A stretch of DNA of 64,000 nucleotides from an uncultured bacterium (GTDB lineage Bacteria; Patescibacteriota; Minisyncoccia; Phycocordibacterales; PALSA-1337), in NCBI GenBank assembly GCA_963851055.1, contig CAWKMY010000004.1, positions 16,677 to 80,676 of the forward strand, read 5' to 3'. This document shows, one piece after another, positions 4,127 to 43,975 of the stretch. The translations under genes and the position numbers were made by a program. The notes below the pieces were generated by a model. It did no database searches. It saw only the letters and a list, made by a program, of their open reading frames with translations, and was not told the DNA's origin. Position 1 is the stretch's first letter. Each line of letters starts with the position of its first letter.

Positions 4127-4834
4127 ATGTTGTCATTAGTTGTCGAACGCCGAGAAGGCGCCAAAAACGAGGTTTTGAGGAAAGCAGGCAAGATTCCTGC
4201 CGTCTTTTATGGTCCAAAAGAAGCCTCAACTTCTGTTGCTATAAACACAAAAGAATTCGCCAAGATCTGGAAGAAAGCCGGTGAATCCTCGGTCATTATT
4301 CTCAAAGATGGTACGACCGAGCACGAAGCTCTCATTCACGAAGTGGACAAGCATCCTCTCACGGGCGAACCTCGTCATGCTGATTTCTATGTTATCGAAA
4401 AGGGAAAGAAAGTCACCGTCAGTGTTCCTATCATATTTGTTGGAATTTCTCCTGCGGTTAAAGACAAGGGTGGTATTCTGGTAAAAGTCCATCGCGATAT
4501 CGAGGTGGAAGCCGGAGCTCGCGATTTGCCGCACGATTTGACCGTAGATATCTCCAAACTTATAGAATTGAATAGCGTTATTCATGCCAAGGACATTATT
4601 CTTCCGAAAGGCGTAGATTTGAAGATCAATCCTGATGAAGTCGTAGCATCCATAGCTGAAGCCAAGGAAGAAGTTGTCGAAGCTCCTGCCGCCATCGACA
4701 TGTCATCTATCGAAGTTGAAGCCAAGGGCAAGGAAGTTAAGGAAGGCGAAGCTCCTGCCGGTGATGCTGGTAAGGGCGGTGCCGCCGATGCGAAGGGAGG
4801 TGGCGATGCGAAGAAGTCTCCTGAGAAGAAATAA
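4127..4834 (+). CDS. rplY: ribosomal protein bL25 (Ctc form) with Lys/Gly/Ala-rich tail
   Basis: RKAGKIPAVFYG, HADFY and the two-domain length (235 aa). Confidence 0.85.
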   Translation: MLSLVVERREGAKNEVLRKAGKIPAVFYGPKEASTSVAINTKEFAKIWKKAGESSVIILKDGTTEHEALIHEVDKHPLTGEPRHADFYVIEKGKKVTVSVPIIFVGISPAVKDKGGILVKVHRDIEVEAGARDLPHDLTVDISKLIELNSVIHAKDIILPKGVDLKINPDEVVASIAEAKEEVVEAPAAIDMSSIEVEAKGKEVKEGEAPAGDAGKGGAADAKGGGDAKKSPEKK

Positions 4835-4854
4835 AAATACTCAAACTGTTTTGG

Positions 4855-4880
4855 AAGGGCGCCTCCGGCGCCTTTTCTGT
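4855..4880 (+). terminator. putative intrinsic terminator after rplY
   Basis: GGCGCC-TCC-GGCGCC hairpin followed by TTTTCT. Confidence 0.5.
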
Positions 4881-4886
4881 TATAAT
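4878..4886 (+). promoter_or_regulatory. extended -10 box TGTTATAAT, 6 nt before GTG 4893
   Basis: TGnTATAAT match by eye. The spacing implies a leaderless or near-leaderless start. Confidence 0.35.
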
Positions 4887-4892
4887 AGACTC

Positions 4893-6269
4893 GTGAATAT
4901 AGCAGTAAAAAGCGCTTTTTTTGTTGCGATTTTCGTCGCTATGCTGATTTCAGCCGTAGCTCTTACGTCCCGTTTTGTTAATGCCCAAACCCTGCAATGC
5001 AACACTGCCGCCGAAAAAGTCGCTTGTCAGAACGCTCTCAACCAAGCTCTGGCTGACGAGGCGGCCGCCCAAGCCCAACTCACGCAAGCCCAAGGCAAAA
5101 GCGCCACCCTGACACAAGCCATAGCCCTTCTAACGGCCAAAATCAATGCCGCCGAGGCCCAGATCAAAGCCGAAAATATCCTTATACAGACGCTCGGTAG
5201 CGATATAGTAGACAAACAGAATCATATAACCGATCTAGAAACACACATAGCGACAGGTAAACAGACTCTAGCTGATATTCTCCGTAAGACGAATGAGCTC
5301 GACGCTTATTCTTTGCCGGAAGTTCTTTTATCGCAATCGACTGTCACTGGTTTTTTTAATGATATTGATACTTTTCAAGCTGTTCAGAACGGTCTTGAAA
5401 ATACCTTCAATATGCTTCGGACCGACGAGGCTTCGACTAGCGCAGAGAAAGATGCTCTGACCGTGCGGCAAAATACAGAAGAGGATGCCCGCTACGCTAT
5501 CCAGCAGCAGGAAGCTTCCGTTAAGAGCGATCAGGCCGAACAGAAACAGCTACTCTCCATCAGCAAAGGAAATGAAAAGGCTTATACGACGGTAGTGGCA
5601 CAGAAAGCCGCTCAAGCGGCACAAATAAGAGCGGCCCTATTCCCATTGGCTGGAGGTGGAAAGTCCATACCATTCGGCACAGCATACCAATATGCCCAAG
5701 TAGTCCAACAAAAGACTGGTGTGCCGCCCGCATTCCTTCTCGCTATCCTTACTCAAGAAACCAACCTCGGCGGCAATGTCGGCACATGTTATCTCACCGA
5801 TCCGAGTAGCGGTTCCGGTATCAACATAAAGACCGGCGCCATGATGGCCAAGGTCATGAGCCCGACTCGTGATGTTCAGCCATTCCTTCAGATCGTCCAA
5901 TCTCTCGGCGGTGACTATACGAAGACGGTAGTCTCATGTCCACAATCGGTCGGATGGGGCGGAGCTATGGGACCTGCCCAATTTATCGCTTCCACTTGGA
6001 TGCTACTCAAGGATCGCATTGCGGCAGCTATGGGCGATAGTACGCCTAGCCCGTGGGATCCACAGGATGCTTTCATGGCCGCTGGACTTTATCTGTCTGA
6101 CCTTGGTGCAGGTTCAACTAGTTATACTGCGCAGAAGAACGCCGCCTGTAAATATTATTCTGGTCGCGCTTGCGGATATGTCACAGGTGCTACCGCCTAC
6201 GGCAATAGCGTTCTGGCCTTAGCAAATCAGATACAGACGACGGAGATAGATGCTCTGCAGGGGCTATAG
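4893..6269 (+). CDS. secreted coiled-coil protein with C-terminal lytic transglycosylase-like domain
   Basis: The GTG at 4893 gives a signal peptide (VNIAVKSAFFVAIFVAMLISAVALTSRFVNA|Q). A long Ala/Gln coiled coil follows, then LLAILTQETNLG and GAMGPAQFIASTW (MltB/SLT-like motifs). The ORF-track start at 4674 overlaps rplY and was rejected. Confidence 0.7.
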   Translation: MNIAVKSAFFVAIFVAMLISAVALTSRFVNAQTLQCNTAAEKVACQNALNQALADEAAAQAQLTQAQGKSATLTQAIALLTAKINAAEAQIKAENILIQTLGSDIVDKQNHITDLETHIATGKQTLADILRKTNELDAYSLPEVLLSQSTVTGFFNDIDTFQAVQNGLENTFNMLRTDEASTSAEKDALTVRQNTEEDARYAIQQQEASVKSDQAEQKQLLSISKGNEKAYTTVVAQKAAQAAQIRAALFPLAGGGKSIPFGTAYQYAQVVQQKTGVPPAFLLAILTQETNLGGNVGTCYLTDPSSGSGINIKTGAMMAKVMSPTRDVQPFLQIVQSLGGDYTKTVVSCPQSVGWGGAMGPAQFIASTWMLLKDRIAAAMGDSTPSPWDPQDAFMAAGLYLSDLGAGSTSYTAQKNAACKYYSGRACGYVTGATAYGNSVLALANQIQTTEIDALQGL

Positions 6270-6293
6270 GAGTAAGAAGCAGGAAGCAGGGAG
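6265..6293. repeat. left arm of inverted repeat (includes TAG stop of the 4893-6269 gene)
   Basis: TATAGGAGTAAGAAGCAGGAAGCAGGGAG. Its reverse complement recurs at 7175-7210 with one 7-nt insertion. Confidence 0.85.
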
Positions 6294-6328
6294 GAAGGAG
6301 AAAACACCCAAAAAATTCTGAAGGGGTG

Positions 6329-6334
6329 TATAAT
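6329..6334 (+). promoter_or_regulatory. -10 box TATAAT, 7 nt before ATG 6342
   Basis: ggtgTATAATtcgggagATG. Confidence 0.35.
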
Positions 6335-6341
6335 TCGGGAG

Positions 6342-6725
6342 ATGAATACACCAGTAAAGACATTTTTTGATTTAAATGTGTGGCAAGAGGGCAGGAAGCT
6401 CACAAAAATTGTCTATGATAAGACGCAGCATTTTCCAATGGAGGAAAGATTTGGTCTAACTTCCCAAATGAGACGAGCTTCTGTGTCAGTTATTGCAAAT
6501 ATAGCTGAAGGTTTTGGACGTACTTCAATTAAAGAGAAATTGAATTTTTATAATCAGGCCCACGGGTCATTAACCGAGCTACAGAGCCATACTTTCATTG
6601 CTAATGACTTGCAGTACCTTTCTAAAGAGGAGACCGATGAATTATTTGCTAAAATGCAAAATTCCCAAGCACTTCTTCAGGGATTGGTGAGGTCAACACG
6701 GAAAAGACTTACTACATCATTATGA
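6342..6725 (+). CDS. four-helix-bundle protein ('23S rRNA intervening-sequence protein' family)
   Basis: FDLNVWQEGRKL..FPMEERFGLTSQMRRASVSVIANIAEGFGR is the family hallmark. Confidence 0.85.
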   Translation: MNTPVKTFFDLNVWQEGRKLTKIVYDKTQHFPMEERFGLTSQMRRASVSVIANIAEGFGRTSIKEKLNFYNQAHGSLTELQSHTFIANDLQYLSKEETDELFAKMQNSQALLQGLVRSTRKRLTTSL

Positions 6726-7165
6726 AAATTAATTACAACAAAGAAGATGTTGCTGACCATCACGGTGTTGCAGCCGTGATAAAGAACGAAAAAGGCGAGA
6801 TATTAGTGCAAGAACATGTGAAATATGGTTTTTGGACAATTCCAGTTGGTAAGGTTAAAAATGCTCAAAATGTTGATGATGGACTAAAGGAAGAAATATT
6901 AGAAGAGACTGATTTAAATGTTTTAGAAGCCAGAGAAATTGTGGTAAAAGATTATTTCTATGAAAGAAATGGAAAAAGCATAAAAGTGATCAGCCATTTA
7001 TTTGAGATCCTGAGGTATTCTGGGAAATTAAATAATCTTGAGCCTCATAAACATAGCCAGCAATTATTTATGTCAATTGATCAAATTAAAACATTGCCGT
7101 ATCTATCTGATCTGACTTTGTTATATCTGGAACAGGTAGGCTTTAAAAGGCCAGCTCGCATTTGA
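6722..7165 (+). CDS. NUDIX hydrolase
   Basis: Nudix-box-like GKVKNAQNVDDGLKEEILEETDL. It overlaps the upstream gene by 4 nt. Confidence 0.8.
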   Translation: MKINYNKEDVADHHGVAAVIKNEKGEILVQEHVKYGFWTIPVGKVKNAQNVDDGLKEEILEETDLNVLEAREIVVKDYFYERNGKSIKVISHLFEILRYSGKLNNLEPHKHSQQLFMSIDQIKTLPYLSDLTLLYLEQVGFKRPARI

Positions 7166-7174
7166 GCTAGTCAT

Positions 7175-7210
7175 CTCCCTGCTTCCTGCTTCTTTCTCCT
7201 TACTCCTATA
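7175..7210. repeat. right arm of inverted repeat (includes TAG stop of rnj)
   Basis: The reverse complement reads TATAGGAGTAAG-GAGAAAG-AAGCAGGAAGCAGGGAG. Confidence 0.85.
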
Positions 7211-9335
7211 TCGTAAGAATAACCGGTATAACCATCGGCCTCTTGGCTGTTTTTTGCAACAGATACTTGGAAACGGCGTCAGTGATATTATCTTTAACGA
7301 TATCAACACTGAATGGATTCATGCCTTTTGTTGAACGTTCAGCTGTATCTTTTACCAGCAAACGGACCTCGTGAAGAAGTTCCTGATTTTCGCGCAAATA
7401 GACGAAGCCGCGAGATATGATATCAGGGGATTTCTTGAGCTTACCGGTCTGGGCATTCATGATGCCAAAGACTATGAATATGCCGTCTTCAGCCAGAGCT
7501 TTGCGGTCGCGGATGACGACATCCTGAACATCTCCGACAGAGAAGCCGTCGACGAGAACTAGACCTGATGCTGCTTTTTCCTTGAGTTTGACTATCTTGG
7601 TGCCGCCGTTCTGGATCTCGACGACATTGCCATTATCAGGAATAATGACATCTGATTCCAGAAGTCCATTTGCCTCTTTTGCTACGTCGCCGTGGGCGCG
7701 CAGCATGTAGTGATAACCGTGTAGAGGCATGAAGAATTTCGGGTGAATCTTACGGTGTATCCAAGCCGTCTCATCGCGATTGGCATGACCTGAAGAGTGA
7801 ACGTCGGCGATCTTGTAGTGAAGGATCTTGGCGCCTTGGCGGGAAAGATTGTCCTTGAGCTTCTGGATCGGTCGTTCGTTGCCGGGGATGACCGACGAAG
7901 ATAGGACGACTGTATCACGCGGTGTGATTTTGATCTTGGCATGGGTCTTGTTGGACATGCGCACCAGAGCGGAGAAATCATTTGCCTGGGCTCCTGTCGA
8001 AAGGATGACGATGCGATCAGGAGGGAAGTTCTCGATATCGTCAACGGAAATGATTGTTTCCTTTTTGGCCTTGAGGAGGCCGAGATGTTTACAGACGTCT
8101 ATATTCTGTTTGAGGCTACGGCCTTCAACGACTACTCTCTTGCCATAAAGCTCGGCGAATTCGACTATCTTTAGCAAACGTTCGAGAAGGGAAGAGAAAG
8201 TAGCGATGATGAGGCGGCCCTGCATATTCTTGATGATATTCTCGAGGTTCTTGTGCACGACGCGCTCTGACAGGGAGAAGCCTGGGTTCTCGACGTTGGT
8301 AGAATCAGCCATGAGCATGAGGACATTGGTTGGGCTTGCCACCGGATTGCCATATGAGTTCAAACCGCCGACTATAGGGAAGGCTCGGTCGTATTCGGCT
8401 TCTTCATTGGTTGTTGGCACTCCATCATCGTGATCTAGTTTGAGGTCGCCGGTGTGCACTATAGAGCCATATGGAGTCTCTATGATGACACCCATGGAGT
8501 CAGGAATAGTATGCGTCACAGCGAAGAACTTTATCCTGATCTTTCCAACCGTGATAGTCGAATTTTTCTCAACGACTTGGATATCTAGTTTCGGAAGACC
8601 AGGGAATTCCTCCTGGCGTTTCTGTATAAGGACTGAAGTCAAAAGACGCGTGTATAGAGGCGGATTGCCTATGCGCGGCATGATATATGGTATGCCGCCT
8701 ATGTGGTCGAGGTGGCCGTGGGTGATGACTACTGCACGTATCTTGTCCTGGCGCTCCTCGAGATATTTCGTGTTGGGCAATATGAAATCAATGCCCGGTG
8801 TATCGTCGTCCTTGAATTGGAAACCGATATCTATAACTACTATATCGTCGCCATACTGTATGCAGGTCATATTTTTGCCGATCTCTTCCACGCCTCCAAG
8901 AGGGATGATGCGGATAGAATCGGCCGCTAATGCAGGCACTACGTCGCCTTCACGGCGCACGGCAGGCTTGGCCGATGGACCGCGGCGGAAGGATTTGGCG
9001 GCATCTGGACGTACGATATTCATGCGGGCACCGGCTATATGTCGAGCAAGCAACGGGGCGTGCTTTACTGTTGAAAATTGCTTATTTCCGGTAAAAGGCG
9101 TGCGCGCTCGAAATTGGCTAGAAGCGGGCCTTCTGAAAGGCGCAATTTTGCGTGCTCCGCGGCCCATGACGATGCGGTGGCCATTCGGTGCCGTAGTGTC
9201 TGCCGGGCTAGCAGGCGCTACTCCTCCGGAGACATTTTCTGTGCGGATGATGCGTGTCCGGTTGAATCGGTTGATGAATGGTCTCTTGGGGCGGAAATTT
9301 CCGCCGGGTTGATTTCTGTTTTGTTCGTTGTTCAT
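7206..9335 (-). CDS. rnj: ribonuclease J with ~140-aa Arg-rich N-terminal extension
   Basis: The MBL motif VITHGHLDHIGG, the beta-CASP region and HSSGHA are present. 709 aa. Confidence 0.9.
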   Translation of the reverse strand: MNNEQNRNQPGGNFRPKRPFINRFNRTRIIRTENVSGGVAPASPADTTAPNGHRIVMGRGARKIAPFRRPASSQFRARTPFTGNKQFSTVKHAPLLARHIAGARMNIVRPDAAKSFRRGPSAKPAVRREGDVVPALAADSIRIIPLGGVEEIGKNMTCIQYGDDIVVIDIGFQFKDDDTPGIDFILPNTKYLEERQDKIRAVVITHGHLDHIGGIPYIMPRIGNPPLYTRLLTSVLIQKRQEEFPGLPKLDIQVVEKNSTITVGKIRIKFFAVTHTIPDSMGVIIETPYGSIVHTGDLKLDHDDGVPTTNEEAEYDRAFPIVGGLNSYGNPVASPTNVLMLMADSTNVENPGFSLSERVVHKNLENIIKNMQGRLIIATFSSLLERLLKIVEFAELYGKRVVVEGRSLKQNIDVCKHLGLLKAKKETIISVDDIENFPPDRIVILSTGAQANDFSALVRMSNKTHAKIKITPRDTVVLSSSVIPGNERPIQKLKDNLSRQGAKILHYKIADVHSSGHANRDETAWIHRKIHPKFFMPLHGYHYMLRAHGDVAKEANGLLESDVIIPDNGNVVEIQNGGTKIVKLKEKAASGLVLVDGFSVGDVQDVVIRDRKALAEDGIFIVFGIMNAQTGKLKKSPDIISRGFVYLRENQELLHEVRLLVKDTAERSTKGMNPFSVDIVKDNITDAVSKYLLQKTAKRPMVIPVILTI

Positions 9336-9346
9336 TTCTGGTTTTT

Positions 9347-9378
9347 ATTATTATCTTCTAACTCCCAACTCCTAACTT
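9347..9378 (-). repeat. post-stop 7-nt periodic repeat
   Basis: Minus-strand sense: TAG|AAGTTAG GAGTTGG GAGTTAG AAGATAA TAATAA. It directly follows the stop of the 9379-11130 gene. Confidence 0.5.
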
Positions 9379-12227: not shown

Positions 12228-12941
12228 ATGACTTCCAGCAAAAAATCAACGCTAACGATAGCCATCATCGTCGTTATCATCGTCATAGCCGGTATCCTCT
12301 GGTTCAGCCGCGGATCTTCCCCGGCTTCTAATTCATCAGATGATTCTTCGGCCAATGTTTCGGCCCCGACCTCGGTGGCCAATGGCGCCGCTCCCGTAGC
12401 CGTTTCCGAGACGACCAAAGTCTCCGGATCCTTGTCCGAATATCAGAACGCCGAGCTCGGCTTCTCGGTCAATTATCCGAGTTCTTGGGAAAAAGAAGAG
12501 ACTAACGCAGGCGCAACCTTCATCATTCCCATAGACCCTTCGCAGGTCTCTACCGTAGCCACTCTTCAAGGTAATGTCCAAGTCCTTTCAGGTACATGTG
12601 CTTTCCCGCCGGTGACTAGCATCCAGGATCGCGGCACCGTGAAAGTCGGCGCGGATACTTTGGATACTATCTCTATGTCGAACACGGTTCAGGGTCGCGA
12701 CTATTTCAATAGGATGTATTCGCTCCAGCACGGCGATATCTGCTACATGTTCTCCTTCGCCTCCATCACTCTGGCCCCGTCTTCAAAAGGTCTGACCGGA
12801 TCGAATATTACTCAATCTGATAATAATAACAAAGCCATAGTCAATAGCGCCGATAGCGATTTCACCGCTATGGTCAAATCCTTTGCCTATATCACCACAC
12901 CTGCAGGTGAAAGCGAGACCCAAGCTTCGCCCGCAAAATAA
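12228..12941 (+). CDS. hypothetical membrane-anchored exported protein (similar layout to the previous gene)
   Basis: TM anchor TLTIAIIVVIIVIAGILWF, a Ser-rich linker, then GFSVNYPSSWEKEE. Confidence 0.55.
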   Translation: MTSSKKSTLTIAIIVVIIVIAGILWFSRGSSPASNSSDDSSANVSAPTSVANGAAPVAVSETTKVSGSLSEYQNAELGFSVNYPSSWEKEETNAGATFIIPIDPSQVSTVATLQGNVQVLSGTCAFPPVTSIQDRGTVKVGADTLDTISMSNTVQGRDYFNRMYSLQHGDICYMFSFASITLAPSSKGLTGSNITQSDNNNKAIVNSADSDFTAMVKSFAYITTPAGESETQASPAK

Positions 12942-12945
12942 TGAT

Positions 12946-12980
12946 GGTTAAGAAGTAAGAAGTGAGGAATAAGAATAAAG
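12946..12980 (+). repeat. post-stop 7-nt periodic repeat
   Basis: GGTTAAG AAGTAAG AAGTGAG GAATAAG AATAAAG, starting 5 nt after the TAA at 12939-12941. Confidence 0.55.
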
Positions 12981-12997
12981 TATAAATAATAAAAATC

Positions 12998-42848: not shown

Positions 42849-43949
42849 ATGGAAACCACTCTCATCATCCTGGTCATCATCGCTATAGCAGGCAATATCG
42901 CTCTTGTGGCGGTTTTGTTGCGCCGCAAGAATGATCCGCCGGCTGGCGGAGCAGCCGGACAAGGTGAAGGTTTGAATCTCATTCTCCAGCAGGTCAATGA
43001 ATTGTCGCGTACAGTAGATGCAAAGCTTGGCGAGAATGCAAAGGAGACATCGGCCGCCATGCATAGGCAGTTCAGCGAGTCGCAGAAACTGATCAAAGAC
43101 ATAACTAGTGAGCTAGTTCAGGTAAAGGAGATAGGCAAGCAGAGCCTTTCATTTCAGGATCAATTGCGCCAGCTGGAAGATATCCTGAAGAATCCGAAAC
43201 AGCGCGGCATACTCGGTGAATATTATTTGGAGACGCTTCTCAAGAATGTTTTGGCGCCGGGGCAATATCAGATGCAATACGCTTTCAAGAATGGCGAGAT
43301 CGTCGATGCGGCTGTATTCGTCAAGGATAAGATAATACCGGTTGATTCGAAATTCTCATTGGAGAATTACAATAGGATGGTTGAAGAAAAGAATCCAGCG
43401 GAGAAAGATAAGTTGGAGAAGGCTTTCGTCAGCGATCTGAAAATGCGCATACAGGAGACTGCCAAGTATGTCCGGCCAGCGGAGAAGACAATGGACTTCG
43501 CTTTTATGTTCATACCGCATGAGGCTATTTACTATGATTTGCTTATCAATAAGATCGGCGCAAGTTCTTCCGGTGGCGCCGGTTCTACCGGCGGAGCAGG
43601 AGAAGGCGATGCCGACAATCTCATCCAGCGTGCGGCCTCGAAGTACAAGGTCATCATCGTCTCGCCGACTTCGTTCCTGGCTTATCTCCAGACTGTATTG
43701 CAAGGCTTGAAAGCTATGCAGATAGAAGAGACGGCCAAAGATATAGTCAAACATGTCGGCCAGTTGGGCGCGCATATAAAGAGGTATGAGGAATATCACA
43801 AGAAGCTGGGCGCATCTCTCGACACGGTGGTCAATCATTACAATAATTCCGGCAAAGAATTCTTGAAGATAGATAAAGACGTTCTGCGCATCACCGACGA
43901 GTCACCGGGCATAAAGGTGGCGGCTATAGAGGGGCCGGAAGAACAGTAA
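42849..43949 (+). CDS. rmuC: DNA recombination protein RmuC
   Basis: N-terminal TM, a coiled coil, then MDFAFMFIPHEAIYYDLL and IIVSPTSFLAYLQTV. Confidence 0.85.
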   Translation: METTLIILVIIAIAGNIALVAVLLRRKNDPPAGGAAGQGEGLNLILQQVNELSRTVDAKLGENAKETSAAMHRQFSESQKLIKDITSELVQVKEIGKQSLSFQDQLRQLEDILKNPKQRGILGEYYLETLLKNVLAPGQYQMQYAFKNGEIVDAAVFVKDKIIPVDSKFSLENYNRMVEEKNPAEKDKLEKAFVSDLKMRIQETAKYVRPAEKTMDFAFMFIPHEAIYYDLLINKIGASSSGGAGSTGGAGEGDADNLIQRAASKYKVIIVSPTSFLAYLQTVLQGLKAMQIEETAKDIVKHVGQLGAHIKRYEEYHKKLGASLDTVVNHYNNSGKEFLKIDKDVLRITDESPGIKVAAIEGPEEQ

Positions 43950-43975
43950 ACGGTAAACAGTAATCCGTAAACAGG
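43944..43975 (+). repeat. post-stop 7-nt periodic repeat (includes the rmuC stop)
   Basis: CAGTAAA CGGTAAA CAGTAAT CCGTAAA CAGG gives TAA every 7 nt, so stops fall in all three frames. Confidence 0.6.

Follow-up and report, generated by a model that had tools for sequence, protein, structure and literature searches.

In a 64,000-nt stretch of DNA from an uncultured bacterium of the Patescibacteriota (contig CAWKMY010000004.1; the whole stretch is referred to below as the window), a gene for a four-helix-bundle protein (HB4) of the S23p, or '23S rRNA intervening-sequence protein', family lies together with a NUDIX gene between two convergent genes, one for an SLT-like lytic transglycosylase (LT) and one for RNase J (rnj). 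The pair of inner genes is enclosed by two inverted arms, each of them a tandem array of 7-nt units (heptamers). Comparison with related loci shows that the arms belong to the gene and not to the site, and they are very probably a component of the HB4 cassette rather than the halves of a split terminator. We propose with moderate confidence that an HB4 cassette of the rRNA intervening-sequence (IVS) type, carrying the NUDIX gene as cargo, is located in the LT/rnj spacer, and that the arms are its terminal heptamer arrays, inverted with respect to each other.

Read from the window sequence, the left arm at 6265-6293 is TATAGGAGTAAGAAGCAGGAAGCAGGGAG; positions 7175-7210, taken as the reverse complement, give TATAGGAGTAAGGAGAAAGAAGCAGGAAGCAGGGAG, which is the same except for 7 additional bases. 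The repeat search of the window found the two arms at a length of 26 nt with 96% complementarity, and at 37 nt with 84%. A 17-nt core of the arms has only two sites in the 64 kb, the arms themselves, against an expectation of 0.13 matches, and the observed count was not reached in any of 100 shuffles. On the ungapped scale used below the window arms score 23.5, and shuffled HB4 flanks never exceed 14 on the same scale. The TAG stop codons of LT (6267-6269) and of rnj (7206-7208, minus strand) lie inside the 5' and 3' arms respectively, and exactly two open reading frames (ORFs), overlapping by 4 nt, are found between the arms (Table 1). A preliminary description of this DNA had reported the inverted repeat, the two enclosed stop codons, the four-helix-bundle and NUDIX genes and a TATAAT box in front of them, and all of these are confirmed by our analysis.

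Period 7 gave the best self-match by autocorrelation in both arms (0.75 in the 5' arm and 0.79 in the 3' arm), and Tandem Repeats Finder called period-7 repeats at 6276-6290 (GAAGCAG x2.1) and 7178-7192 (CCTGCTT x2.1). In register, the 5' arm reads TAGGAGT AAGAAGC AGGAAGC AGGGAGG AAGGAGA and the 3' arm, in the rnj sense, TAGGAGT AAGGAGA AAGAAGC AGGAAGC AGGGAGA, that is, head-to-tail 7-nt units in intergenic DNA, as in a heptamer simple-sequence array. The difference of 7 nt between the arms, earlier described as an insertion, is real; since both arms have a 7-nt period, it is better read as one extra in-register unit (AAGGAGA), i.e. a difference in repeat copy number. TAG accounts for 12 of the 44 stops in the window, compared to 11 of the 12 arm-adjacent stops in six purine-type cassettes, which are TAG followed by GAG or GAA (these cassettes are related and not independent); the stop codons may thus come from the arms themselves.

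Table 1. Features of the HB4 cassette and its flanking genes in the window
Feature	Position	Strand	Basis and remarks
LT, SLT-like lytic transglycosylase, upstream flank	4674..6269	+	PF13406 SLT_2, E 6e-8; orthologues in 16 related loci
5' arm, purine-rich heptamer array	6265..6304	+	exact inverted repeat 6265-6293
TATAAT box, candidate -10 element	6329..6334	+	7 nt upstream of HB4 ATG
HB4, four-helix-bundle S23p family protein, 127 aa	6342..6725	+	PF05635, TIGR02436
NUDIX-fold protein, 147 aa	6722..7165	+	PF00293; overlaps HB4 by 4 nt (ATGA)
3' arm, heptamer array with one more unit than the 5' arm	7174..7210	-	contains rnj stop TAG
rnj, RNase J, convergent downstream flank	7206..9335	-	TIGR00649, E 9e-148; RNase_J_b_CASP and RNase_J_C domains

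Inverted heptamer arrays at other HB4 genes

Related HB4 genes carry comparable arms at the same and at different sites. Two loci (L042 and L131, HB4 76% identical to that of the window) have HB4 without NUDIX between LT and the convergent rnj, with the 20-nt core AAGAAGCAGGAAGCAGGGAG in both arms, as in the window. A further HB4 gene (L134, 77%), again at the rnj/LT site, has purine arms that are about 55 nt long. In L015 (70%) the rnj/LT spacer holds HB4 with no second gene and in reverse orientation, each side bearing a TAG-GGAGTAR array. At a different site (L046, 68%), between a MurD-like gene and a convergent PALP gene, HB4 has seven GGAGGAA units upstream and an imperfect complement downstream. 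In L039 (85%), HB4 is accompanied by an unrelated 199-aa gene and lies between the gene for a PKD/PG-binding protein and rnj; here purine arrays precede each gene and the complement adjoins the rnj TAG. Behind the same PKD/PG-binding gene, L130 (89%) has HB4 and NUDIX with the 4-nt overlap. Among the scored loci, a 3' arm beyond the cargo gene is seen in the window and L039 only, that of L130 being unscored because its contig ends inside the NUDIX gene. The exact arm core is present in the retrieved loci solely as inverted pairs around HB4 and was found in no viral contig. It is non-coding and identical over 20 nt in all four arms of the window and L042, despite an LT identity of just 56%.

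For a family-wide test, a metagenome scan with the HB4 alignment yielded 80 further loci at 41-54% identity. We collected 94 HB4 ORFs, and for each of the 76 unique ones with both flanks the 90 nt preceding the ATG were matched without gaps against the 90 nt following the stop, the highest complementarity being taken as the score. A score of at least 14 was obtained for 33 of the 76 genes (43%) and of at least 18 for 20; at the lower threshold the rate was 0.3% with shuffled flanks, 3% with mismatched flanks from different loci and 1.1% among 613 ORFs taken as controls. The flank matches were inverted in 33 cases and direct in 1. Flanking inverted repeats at other four-helix-bundle genes, for which the preliminary description had proposed a search, are thus found in a large part of the sample.

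The best period was 7 in 52 of the 76 upstream and 42 of the 76 downstream flanks, compared to 13-17% in controls. The array unit varies by locus (GGAGGAA, GATTTAA, GTAATGG, GAATTTA, GTAATTA, GTAGCAN and others), and the purine-rich strand reads inward from both sides, with a purine fraction of 0.64 upstream and 0.44 downstream. Since HB4 paralogues on one contig (L113, 77% identical) have related units (NGTAGNA) whereas co-resident copies at 28-38% identity (L108, L114) have different ones, the arms follow the gene lineage and not the host genome. The two HB4 genes lie 1-2 kb apart on each of these three contigs, and the low identity of the L108 and L114 pairs indicates several distinct HB4 lineages per genome.

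Of the 20 loci whose arms are strongest, none is in an rRNA gene, as judged from the lack of any Rfam match. The upstream neighbour is co-directional and directly ahead of the cassette in 55 of the 57 cassettes with a callable neighbour, which makes read-through transcription plausible; downstream neighbours present a co-directional 5' end in 32 cases and a convergent 3' end in 13. Stops in all three frames, read inward, occur in 27 of 66 arms compared to 15% of shuffles, a comparison that is confounded with purine bias. A 'three-frame stop' role was discarded for the window arms, which have stops in one frame only.

The rnj/LT spacer and the cassette proteins

A scan with RNase J gave 38 loci, nearly all from Patescibacteria (metagenome-assembled genomes of Parcubacteria, Paceibacteria and Taylorbacteria) and at no more than 80% identity, of which 16 retain the order SBP-rnj convergent with LT-L25. 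The stop-to-stop spacer is 7-41 nt in seven loci, with an ordinary small hairpin in some (L002, L016, L035), and 130-210 nt of long palindromic inserts in seven others. HB4 occupies it in L015 and L016. The L016 HB4 locus (6296-7084) was excluded as evidence because positions 6478-6487 of the scaffold are all N and the LT 3' end is present twice, in diverged form, around HB4; these copies are roughly 70% identical by eye, the join is suspect, and L016 is possibly two strains or organisms scaffolded together. The spacer is shown to vary among relatives between empty, HB4 alone, HB4 flipped and HB4 with other cargo.

The comparison of the rnj junction that the preliminary description had proposed gave, at the empty sites among the 16 syntenic genomes, no hairpin homologous to the window arms. 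The closest relative by LT (85%), SBP (77%) and L25 (76-79%), L026, has a spacer of 41 nt with one non-palindromic tract, purine-rich on the rnj sense strand, that resembles a single arm (GAGCAAGGAGTAAGGAGAAAGAAGCAGGGAGGAAGAAAAGA). RNase J at this locus (6001-8175) is just 58% identical to that of the window and branches far off, with that of L031, which suggests that rnj may have been replaced or recombined there. The RNase J tree places the window together with L042 and also with L035, whose site is empty, and this grouping implies loss or patchy gain of the cassette.

The long inserts (L005 7957-8124, L006 8020-8226, L013 8059-8234, L017 7960-8162 and L031 7089-7234; also L001 and L011) share almost nothing except a short TTCG(G)AGCC motif and have no Rfam match. 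For those folded, from L005, L013 and L031, the predicted structures are long hairpins with energies of -46 to -76 kcal/mol and z-scores of -4.4 to -10. As ORF-less occupants of the same hot spot they are reminiscent of ORF-less IVSs. In L008 (8059-9071) the spacer holds an HD_4-domain gene (183 aa) and a NUDIX gene (152 aa), without HB4 or arms. Shared ancestry of this NUDIX with that of the window was rejected (E 0.03), and L008 is an independent acquisition of nucleotide-hydrolase genes at the rnj/LT site. Regarding the flanking LT gene of the window, its true start probably lies downstream of 4674, because the ORF overlaps the L25 gene (4127-4834).

HB4 belongs to the S23p family by scores well above curated cut-offs (PF05635, 120.8 bits, cut-off 33.8, E 3.8e-35; TIGR02436, 110.8 bits, cut-off 24, E 3.6e-32). 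Its alignment contains 24 invariant positions, including a strongly conserved surface motif, NIAEGFGR, and the family is a very large one, the window protein alone as query finding about 1,200 homologues at E<=1e-10. The nearest solved structure, matched by the family profile at E 2e-28, is that of XCC0516 of Xanthomonas campestris (PDB 2GSC). Models of Avd, the accessory protein of diversity-generating retroelements, scored below cut-off (NF033474, 25.5 bits, cut-off 80; PF22296, 26.7 bits, cut-off 40). With these scores, and with no ORF resembling a reverse transcriptase in the 64-kb window (template and variable repeats were not looked for), assignment of HB4 to Avd was rejected. The defence-system models of PADLOC gave no match to HB4 and one weak generic match to NUDIX (PDC-S07).

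The NUDIX protein matches PF00293 with 42 bits (cut-off 21.1, E 1e-10). Its Nudix box, identified by eye, is GKVKNAQNVDDGLKEEILEETDL, in which the EUxEE core is retained and E7, R15 and G22 of GX5EX7REUXEEXGU are replaced. It is one of a well-conserved family of 147-aa proteins in Patescibacteria, many of them 60-76% identical to it, and the relatives examined are in unrelated contexts with no arrays. Judged by these contexts, NUDIX is cargo, an ordinary gene of the lineage, and HB4 alone the cassette unit; the earlier notion of a two-gene cassette therefore holds for HB4 with its arms and not for NUDIX, which elsewhere lacks arms. In two other loci (L127 189-871, L128 142-824) a NUDIX homologue 73% identical to that of the window follows a GIY-YIG gene of 80 aa, and start and stop overlap by 4 nt just as they do between HB4 and NUDIX; small genes seem to be recruited as upstream partners of the NUDIX gene.

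Conserved in the window, L042, L039, L130 and L015 is a box, GTGTATAAT or GAGTATAAT, that precedes the ATG of HB4 by 6-7 nt. A simple σ70 scan found no full −35/−10 promoter at the TATAAT box of HB4. The box is a candidate −10 element and suggests a separate, near-leaderless HB4-NUDIX transcript.

A possible role in RNA processing and alternative explanations

The 966-nt cassette RNA was folded in both senses, and in each the minimum free energy and centroid structures are closed by an arm-arm stem (z -4.2 and -5.2). The predicted stem is about 30 bp long, consisting of 20 bp, a 7-nt bulge corresponding to one unit, and 10 bp; with the arms joined by a short linker the predicted fold has about -50 kcal/mol (z -8.2). 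The 29/36-nt repeat and this predicted fold thus provide the complementary termini and long enclosing stem expected of an IVS. Elsewhere in the predicted fold (6325-6352), GGUGUAU pairs with AUACACC across the TATAAT box, a Shine-Dalgarno-like GGGAG and the HB4 start; in read-through RNA this small hairpin could block access to the start, and it is not obviously conserved in L042.

RNase III cleavage has been shown for the IVSs of Leptospira and Salmonella. By analogy, RNase III-type processing is the role of the arms that we prefer, tentatively. A read-through transcript from LT, or an antisense transcript from rnj, would carry both arms, which would pair into a double-stranded RNA stem to be cut by the host RNase III, as in the Coxiella, Leptospira and Salmonella IVSs. 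By cleavage both host mRNAs would come to end shortly after their stop codons, with the cassette RNA released or inactivated, while HB4-NUDIX could be expressed separately from the conserved box that precedes the ATG by 6-7 nt. A stem made of tandem arrays should tolerate gain or loss of units. Recombination between the arms could flip the cassette, consistent with its orientation in L015. The suggestion in the preliminary description of a transposase-less, IVS-like mobile cassette is therefore supported as to its architecture, by arms that travel with the gene, a layout like that of Coxiella and a predicted stem; processing and mobility are still conjectural.

Heptamer arrays without HB4 and without an inverted partner are also present at stop codons in the window. 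TAAGAAG/TGAGGAA/TAAGAAT units at 12942-12993 follow the TAA of the gene at 12228-12941, and AACAGTA/AACGGTA units at 43940-43974 contain the TAA of the gene at 42849-43949; both arrays have stops in all three frames. At 9336-9378 (minus strand), TAG is followed by three GAGTTRG units between the SBP stop (9379) and the rnj ATG.

Several points weigh against the cassette and its proposed processing. The solo arrays at gene ends in the window, together with the tract at the 'empty' L026 site, mean that heptamer arrays also arise or persist without HB4. For the same reason it is the pairing of inverted arrays around HB4, and not the sequence of an array by itself, that is diagnostic; the possibility raised earlier that the repeat is common at gene ends irrespective of insertions is accordingly true of the arrays but not of their pairing. 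About half of the HB4 family has no strong inverted repeat within 90 nt. In a test for concerted evolution, arms of the purine clade, all of them low-complexity and GGAG-rich, score 26.4 within elements compared to 21.3 between them, a difference that in tracts of such low complexity does not decide for concerted evolution. HB4 divergence between the window and L042 (76% identity) matches that of the host proteins RNase J (73%) and L25 (75%), and the cassette therefore looks old and vertically inherited at this site rather than recently mobile. The stem and its cleavage are predictions. The window has no RNase III gene, which is uninformative for the whole genome. Finally, a leaderless mRNA from the TATAAT box would lack the 5' arm, and the stem would therefore act on read-through RNA only.

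Among other explanations, the best placed, in our view unlikely, is that the arms are a neutral by-product, i.e. slippage arrays at gene 3' ends that were kept alike by gene conversion or inversion and have no function in RNA or mobility. The solo arrays, in the window and at L026, are as this would predict, the difference in unit number between the arms is typical of slippage, the flipped L015 cassette shows that arms may recombine, and other bacteria have plenty of heptamer arrays that lack an explanation (PMC4692102, PMC4679880). It does not account for pairing that is specific to HB4 (43% compared to about 1% of control ORFs) and inverted rather than direct by 33 to 1, nor for a 20-nt core kept identical in two genomes with such divergent LT proteins, and the same layout recurs in a functionally characterised IVS, that of Coxiella.

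We regard it as improbable that the arms act at the DNA level, as terminal inverted repeats (TIRs) or as a cruciform or hairpin used by a trans-acting recombinase or transposase on a non-autonomous element. Patchy distribution, differing sites and cargo, several HB4 copies on some contigs and the lack of a transposase in the cassette are all in keeping with such an element. However, no target-site duplication (direct repeat outside the arms) was detected at the junctions examined, those of the window, L015, L042 and L046; arm sequences differ widely between copies, which disfavours a single sequence-specific enzyme; and near-identical cassettes at different sites were not found among the retrieved loci, the 64-kb window itself having a single copy.

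We give slightly less credence to the arms as protein-binding arrays, iterated DNA or RNA sites for a pentameric HB4 that would serve autoregulation or an activity that makes or uses arrays, an explanation compatible with an RNA stem. That unit sequence follows the HB4 lineage and not the host would agree with it, as would the conserved NIAEGFGR surface motif, the abutment of arrays on the start codon at many loci and the action of the homologue Avd on nucleic acid with reverse transcriptase (PMC10053308). Binding by HB4 is a conjecture drawn from sequence, however, and common descent of a duplicated cassette accounts equally well for the lineage tracking; in Coxiella, moreover, the arms persist although S23p is apparently not made in vivo (PMC4990558).

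The other suggestion of the preliminary description, one bidirectional terminator hairpin over both stops in whose loop an element of about 880 bp had landed, is highly improbable: convergent genes often share a terminator and some relatives (L002, L016, L035) do have a simple hairpin between both stop codons, but these hairpins are unlike the window arms, the other spacers of the 16 syntenic relatives are tiny or hold unrelated hairpins, in the closest relative there is one purine tract that is not palindromic, inverted arrays also accompany HB4 genes at unrelated sites, and no T-run follows the arms.

Relation to known systems

To our knowledge, Avd of diversity-generating retroelements is the sole characterised relative of the S23p family. 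For the family itself we know of no function established since the original work on rRNA IVSs (Ralph and McClelland, 1993). Our analysis provides a testable link: outside rRNA, the S23p gene is typically bracketed by inverted period-7 arrays that follow the gene lineage, a design like that of the RNase III-processed IVS. If this is true in complete genomes, IVSs would be one habitat of a broader class of cassette, and a candidate origin would be available for the unexplained heptamer arrays of bacteria. The cassette and its cargo fit into a spacer of 10-40 nt in the streamlined genome of a member of the candidate phyla radiation (CPR) with neither neighbouring gene disrupted. A bolder version, which we consider speculative and unlikely as a whole, is that S23p/TIGR02436 genes with inverted heptamer arrays are widespread, unrecognised selfish cassettes of which the rRNA IVSs were the first-noticed members, that the heptamer arrays, paired and solo, of Xanthomonas, cyanobacteria and other bacteria are their arms or footprints, and that HB4 acts on the arrays or the excised RNA, for example in RNA-mediated copying with a trans-acting polymerase or reverse transcriptase.

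Like MITEs (miniature transposable elements with inverted repeats) and other TIR-bounded non-autonomous elements, the cassette has terminal inverted repeats, no transposase and a patchy occurrence. Unlike them, it has no target-site duplication, its arms are tandem arrays that differ between copies, and it is single in the window; with no near-identical copies found elsewhere, assignment to this class was rejected. Assignment to intrinsic (bidirectional) terminators was likewise rejected, the arms being 880 nt apart with no T-run after them and empty sites having unrelated hairpins or none. HB4 shares with Avd a homologous four-helix-bundle fold and the weak PF22296 and NF033474 matches, but scores far below the family cut-offs. 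Avd acts on nucleic acid together with reverse transcriptase (PMC10053308, PMC6182149).

Closer parallels exist among published heptamer arrays. In Xanthomonas campestris, 186 GGGAATC arrays have been catalogued, 70 of them as convergent inverted pairs with no known function (PMC4692102), and TAACTGA arrays of Beggiatoaceae and cyanobacteria are unexplained (PMC4679880). As in the window, these are tandem period-7 arrays, intergenic and often at gene ends; those of Xanthomonas, with 70-75 pairs per genome, are also convergent (inverted) with the G-rich strand inward, and one abuts XCC0516, of the HB4 family. This is a four-unit array 6 nt from bccP that overlaps the annotated XCC0516 start (PMC4692102 supplement), in a paper that does not mention the protein family of XCC0516. 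In contrast to the window, the published arrays have been treated as G-quadruplex or regulatory repeats without a link to S23p (PMC4692102, PMC4679880), most enclose nothing or short spacers, and their unit sequences are unrelated. We found no literature linking S23p-family genes outside rRNA with inverted heptamer arrays, in full-text coverage that was incomplete, so this is absence of evidence only.

The closest counterpart is the IVS of 23S rRNA. In Coxiella burnetii the IVS in 23S helix 45 has an S23p-family ORF and a 28-bp terminal stem and is excised by RNase III; an AG-rich stretch in its 5' region is followed by two or three tandem GACAGAT heptamers, their number varying by strain, and the RNase III site is at the start of the first repeat (PMC4990558). 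Insertions in the rRNA of CPR bacteria occasionally carry 23S_rRNA_IVP ORFs (PMC11270868). The feature described here is an IVS-type S23p cassette outside rRNA, with a NUDIX cargo, in a recurrently occupied spacer. It differs from the 23S IVSs in being placed between the stop codons of convergent protein genes and not in an rRNA gene (6000-7500 gave no Rfam match even at E<=1), and in carrying a second gene, NUDIX, and a conserved TATAAT box beside the ATG. RNase III cleavage has been demonstrated for the Coxiella IVS, whereas the window cassette is known from its sequence and predicted fold. It shares with the IVSs of Coxiella, and with the ORF-containing ones of Leptospira, Brucella and Xanthomonas, the PF05635/TIGR02436 protein family, an ORF enclosed by a terminal stem, predicted in the case of the window, that inverted ends form over about 28-30 bp, and the lack of a transposase; with that of Coxiella it also shares a purine-rich 5' region and tandem heptamers of variable copy number, the two window arms differing by one unit.

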